Positions 25,093-25,247 of a stretch of 64,000 nucleotides of DNA are shown here, in pieces. A program made the translations under genes and the position numbers. How positions within the stretch are numbered: the first letter of the stretch is position 1; each line of letters starts with the position of its first letter. Where the stretch lies: the sequence record PZ402300.1; one strand, 5' to 3'. Below the pieces are notes generated by a model, which saw only the letters and a program-made list of their open reading frames with translations, was not told the DNA's origin and did no database searches. This DNA is from a phage.

Positions 25093-25166
25093 TACCCACT
25101 ACTGGATTTGAACCAGTGACCTTCCGATTATTAGTCGGTTGCTTTCCCCGTCTAAGCTAAGTGGGC
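25093..25166 (-). tRNA. tRNA gene (74 nt); manual fold gives anticodon loop CUAAUAA (anticodon AAU as read, unusual), identity unresolved
   Basis: 7-bp acceptor stem (G1-U72), D arm GCUU/AAGC, T arm ACUGG-UUCAAAU-CCAGU; anticodon stem has A-A at 27-43. Confidence 0.55.
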
Positions 25167-25174
25167 ATAAATGG

Positions 25175-25247
25175 TTACCCGGACAGGATTCGAACCTGTG
25201 TCCTAGTTGGTTTACTAGTGGGGCTTTACCACTAAGCCTACCGGGTA
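25175..25247 (-). tRNA. tRNA-like gene (73 nt) with canonical acceptor, D and T arms but a 6-nt anticodon loop in my manual fold
   Basis: Acceptor UACCCGG/CCGGGUA, D arm GGCU/AGCC, T arm ACAGG-UUCGAAU-CCUGU; anticodon stem CUAGU/ACUAG encloses AAACCA. Confidence 0.45.

Follow-up and report, generated by a model that had tools for sequence, protein, structure and literature searches.

The 64,000-nt stretch of PZ402300.1 analysed here (the window) comes from a G7C-like (Gamaleyavirus) N4-like coliphage, its best DNA matches being Gamaleyavirus genomes. Two adjacent RNA genes, U6 and U7, lie on the minus strand, in the orientation of the early/middle genes that flank them. They are the last members of an array (25876-25094) in which at least eight acceptor-closed units follow one another head to tail; the open reading frame (ORF) of the virion RNA polymerase (3,479 codons) ends at 23797. 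Run on the whole 64 kb, ARAGORN returned exactly two tRNA genes, both on the minus strand: a tRNA-Ile(aat) at 25092-25166 (U7) and a tRNA-??? at 25172-25247 (U6), with a two-base 'anticodon' (ac) that corresponds to a 6-nt loop. Both scored above the gathering threshold (29) of the Rfam tRNA model RF00005 (U7, 64.8 bits, E 3.9e-13; U6, 42.0 bits, E 7.3e-07), and both possess the 7-bp acceptor stem, T-loop consensus and D-loop G18 G19 of a canonical cloverleaf.

A sequence-only reading had folded both genes by hand, placing their acceptor, D and T arms on the minus strand, and ARAGORN, Rfam and ViennaRNA agree with these folds. Its description of U7 (A-A at 27-43, loop CUAAUAA and anticodon AAU) is reproduced by ARAGORN and the Rfam alignment, and that of U6 (a 6-nt loop AAACCA closed by CUAGU/ACUAG) by ARAGORN and the ViennaRNA minimum-energy fold. 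A34, which it called unusual, is rare; ANN tRNAs make up ~2.9% of bacterial tRNA genes (PMC13092985). Three options had been offered: an unusual tRNA, which holds for U7; a tRNA-like decoy, of which 'tRNA-like' holds for U6 in that it lacks normal decoding, 'decoy' being a functional guess; and faulty hand folding, which the three programs rule out. The ARAGORN run that had been proposed as a check gave tRNA calls with a non-canonical U6 loop, rather than canonical loops or no calls, and in the comparison with related N4-like phages the unusual loops of both genes recurred. A sequencing artefact is also ruled out, as the same loop types occur in ~20 independent genomes. Two points had been overlooked, namely that the pair forms the 3' end of the longer array of tRNA-like cassettes, and that the A·A mismatch is in itself unremarkable, since 4-bp anticodon stems are widespread in bacterial tRNA genes (PMC13092985).

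In U6, the 7-bp acceptor stem is perfectly paired, U8 is present, the D-arm carries G18 G19, the T-arm (ACAGG-UUCGAAU-CCUGU) is canonical, and discriminator A precedes a CCA that is encoded in the genome. The third arm begins after a 3-nt linker and consists of the 5-bp stem and the 6-nt loop named above, which contains no U. The minimum-energy fold is a clean cloverleaf (ViennaRNA, z = -2.56), and the Rfam tRNA model bypasses the anticodon arm by a local end. The marks of decoding competence (a 7-nt loop, U33 and a purine at position 37) are lacking in U6 and in its orthologs, the loops of which have 6, 8 or 9 nt; U6 cannot decode in the normal way. No match to U6 was found in 5,426 E. coli genomes, and host mimicry was rejected for it. 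In the Gamaleyavirus copies, the D-arm sequence CUUAGU could also pair with ACUAGG in the 3' strand of the third arm to give an alternative 6-bp helix. This helix (alignment columns 12-17 with 43-48) is chosen by RNAalifold and is not conserved in the subgroup with 9-nt loops.

Homologs of U6 were identified in ~20 Gamaleyavirus records, in Kaypoctavirus KP8 (annotated as tRNA-Leu), in the Enterobacter N4-like phage SABI and metagenomic relatives, in the record of Enterobacter phage SonariX and, outside the N4-like phages, in the 147-kb Klebsiella myovirus 05F01. All four helices are kept in the 14 distinct sequences, which represent four phage groups. Changes on both sides of a pair were seen in the acceptor stem (2-71, 4-69, 6-67, 7-66), the T-stem (49-65) and the third arm, the stem of which reads CUAGU/ACUAG, CCCAG/CUGGG, CCCAA/UUGGG or CAUAG/UUAUG within the family. 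Such two-sided changes affect 9 of 22 pairs, compared with 2.3 ± 1.1 in shuffles (0 of 500 reach 9), in a model-fitted alignment, which leans towards structure. Controls with slid partners gave 0-2 two-sided pairs, and 93.8% of cells in the family are paired. With the register set by hand, the third arm has 5/5 pairs in all 14 sequences, and no disruptive stem substitution was found in the 10 distinct Gamaleyavirus copies. A covariance model of the family gives its members 77-105 bits and ordinary tRNAs at most 40 bits. The discriminator varies between A and G.

The loop differs by lineage. Gamaleyavirus copies have the 6-nt AAAC[C/U/G]A, KP8 has the 8-nt CAGGCAUG, and the 9-nt RACUUAAGA is found in SABI, 05F01 and a further locus, L030 (loci of relatives are cited by L numbers). 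A 7-nt loop with U33 is absent from all 14 sequences. An N4-like podovirus and the myovirus share the 9-nt loop, with stems and acceptor that have diverged. Neutral decay of a pseudogene is not what these sequences display, as covariation is present and stem disruption is absent from the 10 Gamaleyavirus copies, and by this comparative record U6 is best regarded as a selected, non-decoding tRNA mimic, neither a decaying pseudogene nor a misfold. Within the 9-nt loops (L030, L032 and L034, the last being 05F01), a palindrome in R-A-CUUAAG-A is conserved while the stems covary.

U7 has a 7-nt loop, U33 and a purine at position 37, on a stem of 4 bp plus the A·A, which the Rfam alignment flags as a non-standard pair. 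The loop CTAATAA and A27·A43 are invariant across ~17 related phages, and pairs 2-71 and 29-41 each occur as C-G, U·G and U-A in relatives; an invariant loop and mismatch combined with compensating stem pairs indicate that U7 is under structural selection with a protected loop. U7 is a genuine but unusual tRNA-Ile. It resembles bacterial tRNA-Ile(GAU) in its cloverleaf, T-loop, D-loop G18 G19 and 7-nt loop with U33, and in A73, C4-G69, U12-A23, C29-G41, A35, U36, A37 and A38 (residues read from the Rfam alignment), but differs from bacterial tRNA-Ile in having A at position 34 (not G or lysidine) and A27·A43, and in having no encoded CCA. In place of the usual bacterial anticodon (GAU, or CAU modified to lysidine), AAU is found in the window and in all relatives examined. 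The residues from A73 to A38 listed above correspond to the identity set of E. coli IleRS, reportedly defined by Nureki et al. in 1994, except for G34.

Unmodified A34 tRNAs are very few, and engineered E. coli A34 tRNAs in which positions 35 and 36 are both unlike those of ACG receive no TadA inosine and show a strong bias to U-ending codons (PMC11066159). U7 differs from ACG at both positions; thus, it falls in this class, and its A34 would be expected to stay unmodified in E. coli and to read AUU nearly exclusively. In the ORFs of the window, Ile codons are used at 0.62 (ATT), 0.28 (ATC) and 0.10 (ATA), and U7 would supply an AUU-specific tRNA that matches the dominant Ile codon of the phage. 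Anticodon stems of 4 bp, 'unpinned at the top', are a common feature and make wobble decoding more relaxed (PMC13092985). Loss of the 27-43 pair through U43A is also one of two changes that make a coliphage tRNA-Thr resistant to the anticodon-stem nuclease P2-OLD (PMC12445682). In its sequence features, U7 shares the unpaired 27-43 with this resistant tRNA, besides G34A relative to host tRNA-Ile, and it may also escape an anticodon-arm nuclease. The peculiarities of U7 may serve codon supply, nuclease evasion or both. A search for host mimicry by U7 was uninformative, the best E. coli match being only 76% identical and annotated as tRNA-Thr.

Among near-identical Gamaleyaviruses, U6 and U7 are precisely present, absent or replaced. 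U6 is cleanly absent from seven sampled loci and U7 from three; the close relatives PBM-2, UE-S5a and nithesis have both. A different insert occupies the U6 slot in L006, L007 and L024 (the inserts of L006 and L024 being the same), and L024 keeps U6 downstream of it. Judged from these sequence comparisons, U6 and U7 are dispensable accessory cassettes. A terminal stem of 10 bp (GAGGCTGTAC...GTACAGCCTC) closes the L006/L024 insert, with ACC after it; this insert is not tRNA-like, so the slot accepts non-tRNA-like RNA cassettes too.

In more distant N4-like phages, canonical tRNAs for Asn, Asp, Tyr and Gln occupy the homologous locus, with a U6-type or a long acceptor-closed unit after them. In 05F01, canonical tRNAs flank the U1-like and U6-like units, the spacers being equally short and the CCA ends likewise encoded. 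The canonical tRNAs of L009-L013, L032 and L033 are Asn(GUU), Asp(GUC) and Tyr(GUA), with Gln(UUG). Asn, Asp and Tyr belong to the queuosine family of four tRNAs, which colicin E5 cleaves, and this hints at a link between defence and the choice of tRNAs. On the ~3 kb of L034 (Klebsiella phage 05F01, LC483177.1 96178-99255), ARAGORN calls nine canonical tRNAs (Leu, Arg, Ser, Tyr, Asn, Gln, Thr, Gly and Cys); besides the U1-like and U6-like units there is an extra 49-nt mini-unit (GGTGACT.../AGTCACC + CCCA), and all these tRNAs and tRNA-like units are unannotated in the GenBank record.

The other units of the array lie upstream of U6 (Table 1). Seven copies of the T-arm motif GGTTCRANTCC lie in the window (0.14 expected), all of them on the minus strand and within 25104-25835.

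Table 1. Positions of the tRNA-like units and of the downstream hairpin in the window.
Feature	Position	Strand	Description	Basis
U1	25811..25876	-	62 nt + ACCA; acceptor TCCGGTG/CGCCGGA abutting T-arm TCTGG-TTCGAGT-CCAGA	parsing, fold z = -2.17
U2	25685..25808	-	120 nt + ACCA; perfect 7-bp acceptor TACCAGT/ACTGGTA abutting T-arm GGGGG-TTCGAAT-CCCTC	parsing, relatives
U3 (weak call)	25598..25670	-	cloverleaf-like; T-arm TAAGG-TTCGAAT-CCTTA; acceptor 6/7 pairs; no CCA	parsing, fold z = -1.1
U4 (weak call)	25510..25579	-	T-arm-like TAGGG-TTCGATT-CCCTC (4/5 pairs); weak acceptor stem	motif, parsing
U5 (weak call)	25443..25501	-	short; T-arm GGTGG-TTCGATT-CCATC; weak acceptor, 6/7 pairs	T-arm motif, parsing
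U5b	25252..25369	-	~118 nt; 7-bp stem TGAGTCA/TGACTCA beside T-arm-like hairpin GCCAG-TTAAAGC-CTGGC	sequence, scan, fold
U6	25172..25247	-	tRNA-shaped RNA; encoded ACCA; 6-nt loop AAACCA without U33	ARAGORN, Rfam, ViennaRNA, family model, covariation
U7	25094..25166	-	tRNA-Ile; anticodon AAU; A27·A43; discriminator A73; no encoded CCA	ARAGORN, Rfam, covariation
Terminator-like hairpin	24835..24856	-	intrinsic-terminator-like, AAGTCCCTCTTCGGAGGGATTT then TTTTATTT; ~240 nt downstream of U7	consensus scan

U1 and U2 retain an acceptor stem and a canonical T-arm only, on a non-tRNA body. One hairpin with the loop core GUGCAC replaces the D and anticodon arms of U1, and two long inner hairpins stand in their place in U2. 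Homologs of U1 are present in KP8-like phages and in myovirus 05F01; in relatives the hairpin stem is wholly replaced with covariation while the GUGCAC loop is kept, and a T-stem pair changes from U-A to C-G. U1 scores 24.9 bits with the U6-family model. Almost all Gamaleyavirus loci carry U2, at 97-99% identity; KP8-like loci carry it with two acceptor pairs flipped compensatorily. The third arm of U3 has a stem CGTTG/CAACG closing a 5-nt loop, CAAAC; this unit scores 15.9 bits (E 0.23) with the U6-family model and is present in few relatives only. U4 is the most variable unit among relatives (84-97% identity), and U5 is ~98% identical in 15 loci and shows no covariation. U5b is conserved in ~25 loci and its fold is stable (z = -3.28; 0 of 200 shuffles as stable), with a CTCA tail in the window and CCCA in several relatives; it lacks the T-loop consensus, and its tRNA-likeness is weaker. 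At E up to 10, the Rfam tRNA model gave no match on U1-U5, and no other Rfam family (tmRNA, Y RNA etc.) matched U1-U7.

The array is not claimed beyond 25876. An upstream extension by a scan for a 7-bp stem abutting a 5-bp/7-nt hairpin was rejected as unspecific (43 matches compared with ~33 in shuffles). Relaxed ARAGORN calls on the upstream units (tRNA-Ser(gga), tRNA-Leu(cag) and tRNA-?(gc)) were rejected as forced folds because the acceptor/T-arm parsing fits better and, for U1 and U2, is supported by relatives. Sliding-window fold z-scores across the array were uninformative, as the windows cut across units. The sequence TGCACG occurs four times in ~400 nt in U1, U2 and U5 (25484-25489, 25796-25801, 25849-25856) and was set aside as a shared motif, being too common (35 copies in the window, 19 expected). 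In PhAPEC5, a terminator is annotated at the place matching the downstream hairpin, which probably ends the transcription unit of the array.

The loop palindrome GUGCAC of U1 lies at 25846-25851 and recurs at L034:1308-1314. The dimerisation-initiation kissing loop of HIV-1 is AA-GUGCAC-A, and the palindromes of U1 and of the 9-nt U6 loops are laid out as they are there. The palindromic loops may support loop-loop dimerisation, provide a protein site, or just extend the hairpin with a tetraloop.

Taken together, the structure, conservation, covariation, cassette behaviour and codon usage observed here form the basis of a joint explanation that we consider probable: U7 is a working A34 tRNA-Ile, U6 is a non-decoding tRNA mimic, and both are dispensable cassettes ending the array. 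From these features we infer the expression, processing and charging of the two RNAs, their range of decoding, and any part they play as decoys or against defence. Given that the array units have an acceptor stem, a T/D elbow and RCCA, they look like substrates of normal tRNA maturation. U6 would mature like a tRNA, through RNase P at its 5' end and the encoded CCA at its 3' end, and would act via its top half (acceptor, D/T elbow and NCCA) as a mimic engaging a factor, of host or phage origin, that recognises the shape of tRNAs. Selection would bear on this top half; in the third arm it would require that a stem exists but leave its sequence free, with a loop that is non-decoding yet conserved in each lineage. 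The locus would behave as a hot spot of accessory functions in host interaction. Dispensable genes and turnover of cassettes typify host-interaction (anti-defence) loci, which by analogy makes a role for the U6 mimic as an inhibitor or bait plausible but unproven.

Several observations weigh against this explanation. Spacers and units are equally conserved among close relatives, such that identity within the genus is uninformative on selection; unit-versus-spacer identity was dropped as evidence for this reason, and the case rests on covariation from few distant lineages, which itself comes from few independent events. On an unfitted MAFFT alignment, RNAalifold recovers the acceptor and T helices only and prefers an alternative middle pairing (that of the Gamaleyavirus subgroup), a partial recovery that is due to register shifts in loop length between the U6 subgroups. 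The encoded CCA is not always kept, some U6 relatives having ATCA, ATTA or CTCC. In the remainder of the array, U3-U5 are weak units and the whole-molecule fold of U2 is no more stable than shuffles (z = -0.08). Any decoy working by stoichiometry would face competition from all the tRNA of the cell, an implausible mechanism unless its binding is far tighter or it blocks a sensor; given the size of that pool, a simple stoichiometric sponge role for U6 is unlikely. Codon supply by U7 is weak alone, as host tRNA-Ile(GAU) already reads AUU, and phages without U7 (L018, L020 and L023) are evidently viable.

For U7, it is possible, although we propose it only tentatively, that A34 and A27·A43 serve mainly to evade a nuclease, with U7 replacing host tRNA-Ile(GAU) that a host or competitor toxin destroys or blocks. 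Changes in the anticodon arm of phage tRNAs have been predicted or shown to confer resistance to tRNases (PMC10264068; PMC11555353; PMC12445682), the U43A loss of the 27-43 pair contributes to such resistance (PMC12445682), and the U7 loop and mismatch stay invariant while its stems drift, in a cassette that is dispensable as a host-range factor would be. However, the literature consulted names no E. coli phage-defence nuclease specific for tRNA-Ile, the anticodon stem of U7 keeps CCG/CGG (CNG-type) motifs, and an A34 tRNA that reads mainly AUU would leave AUC (28%) and AUA (10%) uncovered.

A broader proposal for the U6, U1 and U2 families, which is speculative and which we rate as unlikely, is that 'anticodon-less' tRNA mimics, which mature like tRNAs and act in trans via acceptor, T-arm and elbow, are shared by several families of enterobacterial phages, among them N4-like podoviruses and at least one large myovirus. 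These RNAs might inhibit or bait host immune nucleases or further factors able to recognise the CCA tail or the tRNA shape (Cas12a3-like, HEPN, Schlafen or OLD-type), or dimerise via their GUGCAC and CUUAAG loops. If true, they would constitute a new class of RNA anti-defence or host-takeover cassette in a hypervariable locus.

The units could instead be processing punctuation or stabilisers, in which RNase P and 3'-end features are kept to cut a polycistronic transcript and no role in trans exists. RNase P recognises the acceptor stem, T/D elbow and RCCA, which are the conserved parts, and disregards the anticodon loop, which would then be free to vary; the head-to-tail layout with 2-10-nt spacers and the terminator downstream of the array also suit this role. 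There is no mRNA between the units to release, however, and the next gene lies beyond the terminator, such that the array would punctuate itself only. Processing alone does not explain the conserved RACUUAAGA and GUGCAC loops, and gain and loss by cassette is odd for a purely structural role. Plant-mitochondrial t-elements provide a precedent (PMC1920247), and for this phage we regard punctuation as improbable.

Decay fares no better as an account of U6 and the other odd units and is quite improbable. It would make them tRNA pseudogenes without function of their own, left over from a canonical Asn/Asp/Tyr/Gln-type array such as the one that distant relatives carry at the matching locus. Free loss of units among relatives, the imperfect acceptor stems of U3-U5, the degraded CCA of some U6 copies and the equal conservation of the spacers would all be expected of decaying genes, but two-sided changes keep the U6 stems paired across four phage groups, the 10 distinct Gamaleyavirus copies carry no disruptive stem substitution, the 9-nt loop persists between podovirus and myovirus despite diverged stems, and the U1 hairpin likewise combines a covarying stem with a conserved loop.

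Expanded anticodon loops give +1 frameshift suppression (sufD, sufJ and engineered 8- and 9-nt loops). It is nonetheless very improbable that U6-type RNAs are charged and decode unconventionally, reading doublets with the 6-nt loop (-1 frameshift) and quadruplets or UAA with the 8/9-nt loops: such suppressors share with U6 a non-7-nt loop on a normal tRNA body, the intact elbow and acceptor end make ribosome and EF-Tu binding conceivable, and ARAGORN at low stringency (-ps85) calls the 05F01 copy tRNA-Stop(tta), but suppressors have U33 and a defined extended anticodon, whereas no U6 variant has U33 in register, the window loop has 6 nt, ortholog loops of 6, 8 and 9 nt would imply differing recoding in closely similar genomes, the gene is dispensable and absent from about half of the near-identical Gamaleyaviruses, so that no essential recoding depends on it, and the discriminator varies (A/G) with no G3·U70, long variable arm or G-1 seen by inspection. 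Covariation, loop variation and dispensability thus contradict neutral decay and unconventional decoding, each in its turn.

The preferred reading of U6 and U7 can be set beside known systems. The T4 tRNA cluster contains small stable non-tRNA RNAs, RNAC and RNAD (species 1 and 2), which have tRNA-like termini. Likened by location alone, U1, U2, U5b and U6 are similarly placed, and by this analogy the T4 RNAs are the nearest precedent, although the U6 family differs in keeping a complete cloverleaf. The function of RNAC and RNAD is still unknown after 50 years (PMC3014915; PMC9697503). Phage tRNAs that evade tRNases are known from mycobacteriophage (against VapC and others), from a coliphage (tRNA-Thr against P2-OLD) and from T5 (tRNA-Tyr/tRNA-Lys against retron-Eco7/PARIS). 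U7 is like them as an accessory phage tRNA in an array with an invariantly lost 27-43 pair, a shortening of the anticodon stem that is documented as a resistance change (PMC12445682); unlike U6, these tRNAs decode with normal 7-nt loops. The acceptor/T-arm half is likewise mimicked without a decoding anticodon by tmRNA, YrlA (a bacterial Y RNA) and viral 3' tRNA-like structures, but those modules are domains of a larger RNA, whereas U1-U7 are free-standing, tRNA-sized and arrayed like tRNA genes.

Close relatives of the phage are annotated with tRNA-Ile(AAT) and with U6 as tRNA-OTHER, Undet, Xle or Thr. In a published tRNAscan-SE analysis, copies with 99% identity were listed as tRNA-Ile-AAT and tRNA-Undet-NNN (PMC11927229), and the KP8 paper reported six tRNA genes, two of them unidentified (PMC6950046). 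In open-access papers and preprints, only mentions at the level of annotation were found, with neither recognition of the U6 family as a conserved non-decoding tRNA mimic nor description of the array. Across annotators, the array units are labelled inconsistently (tRNA-OTHER, Undet, Thr, Leu, Gln, Xle or 'hypothetical protein') or missed. Why phages carry tRNAs is a 50-year-old question, and some phage tRNAs have recently been shown to counter host immunity based on tRNA cleavage. With the U6 body under selection and its decoding loop removed, the benefit cannot be codon supply, and U7 is an A34 tRNA-Ile, a type almost absent from bacteria. The locus would be highly interesting if a trans-acting anti-defence role proved true, and the natural plus/minus variants among near-identical, easily cultured coliphages make the function of U6 and U7 directly testable.

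Two further tRNA cassettes of relatives, called tRNA-Ala(CGC) and tRNA-Cys(ACA), are absent from the window. The 'tRNA-Ala(CGC)' (L004:2479-2550, L018:855-926 and L023:706-775) is non-canonical: its D-stem has 3 bp, and mismatches occur in the acceptor (A·C) and in the anticodon stem (U·U). The annotation of a near-identical copy (L023, PD205) is tRNA-Pseudo-GCT. The 'tRNA-Cys(ACA)' (L002:1420-1499 and L025:1123-1198) is non-canonical too: it likewise carries A34, and the call disappears if the fragment is scanned by itself; in the window ORFs, 76% of Cys codons are TGT. The SonariX record (L033; PQ898399.1, a 248,734-bp 'partial genome') has the same layout and coordinates of the tRNA locus as the 76-kb SABI, and its U6-like segment is identical in sequence to that of SABI. 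Such identity suggests that the 249-kb record may be chimeric or co-assembled.

The neighbours of the array encode SSB, a RuvC-like resolvase, a Sak4-like protein and gp49-family proteins, and no tRNA-processing, repair or related enzymes were found among the flanking genes. About 500 nt upstream of the array, 26275-26427 (minus strand) gave sub-threshold Rfam matches to tmRNA_permuted (27.7 bits, gathering 47) and beta_tmRNA (18.8 bits). This stretch reads GCAAACGAUGAUGUUGUUCUGAUGGUGGCGUAA, with a tag-like 'ANDDVVLMVA*'; over the same interval ARAGORN called no tmRNA, the minus strand holds no ORF of at least 40 aa, and the matches are probably due to chance. A 53-aa ORF at 27053-27214 (minus strand; MAQKLLLGVVVFIVLMLLLVRIIDVSAPYIAFIITVIILWK...), without family assignment, resembles a small two-helix membrane protein. 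The ~1.3 kb between the array and a gp46/47-like gene at 27223-27663 (25880-27220) contains no ORF with a PHROG or Pfam match. Of 11 minus-strand windows starting at 27220-26620, ten have a fold z of -2.0 or below, compared with 10-18% below -2 in coding controls, and more structured RNAs may lie within 25880-27220.

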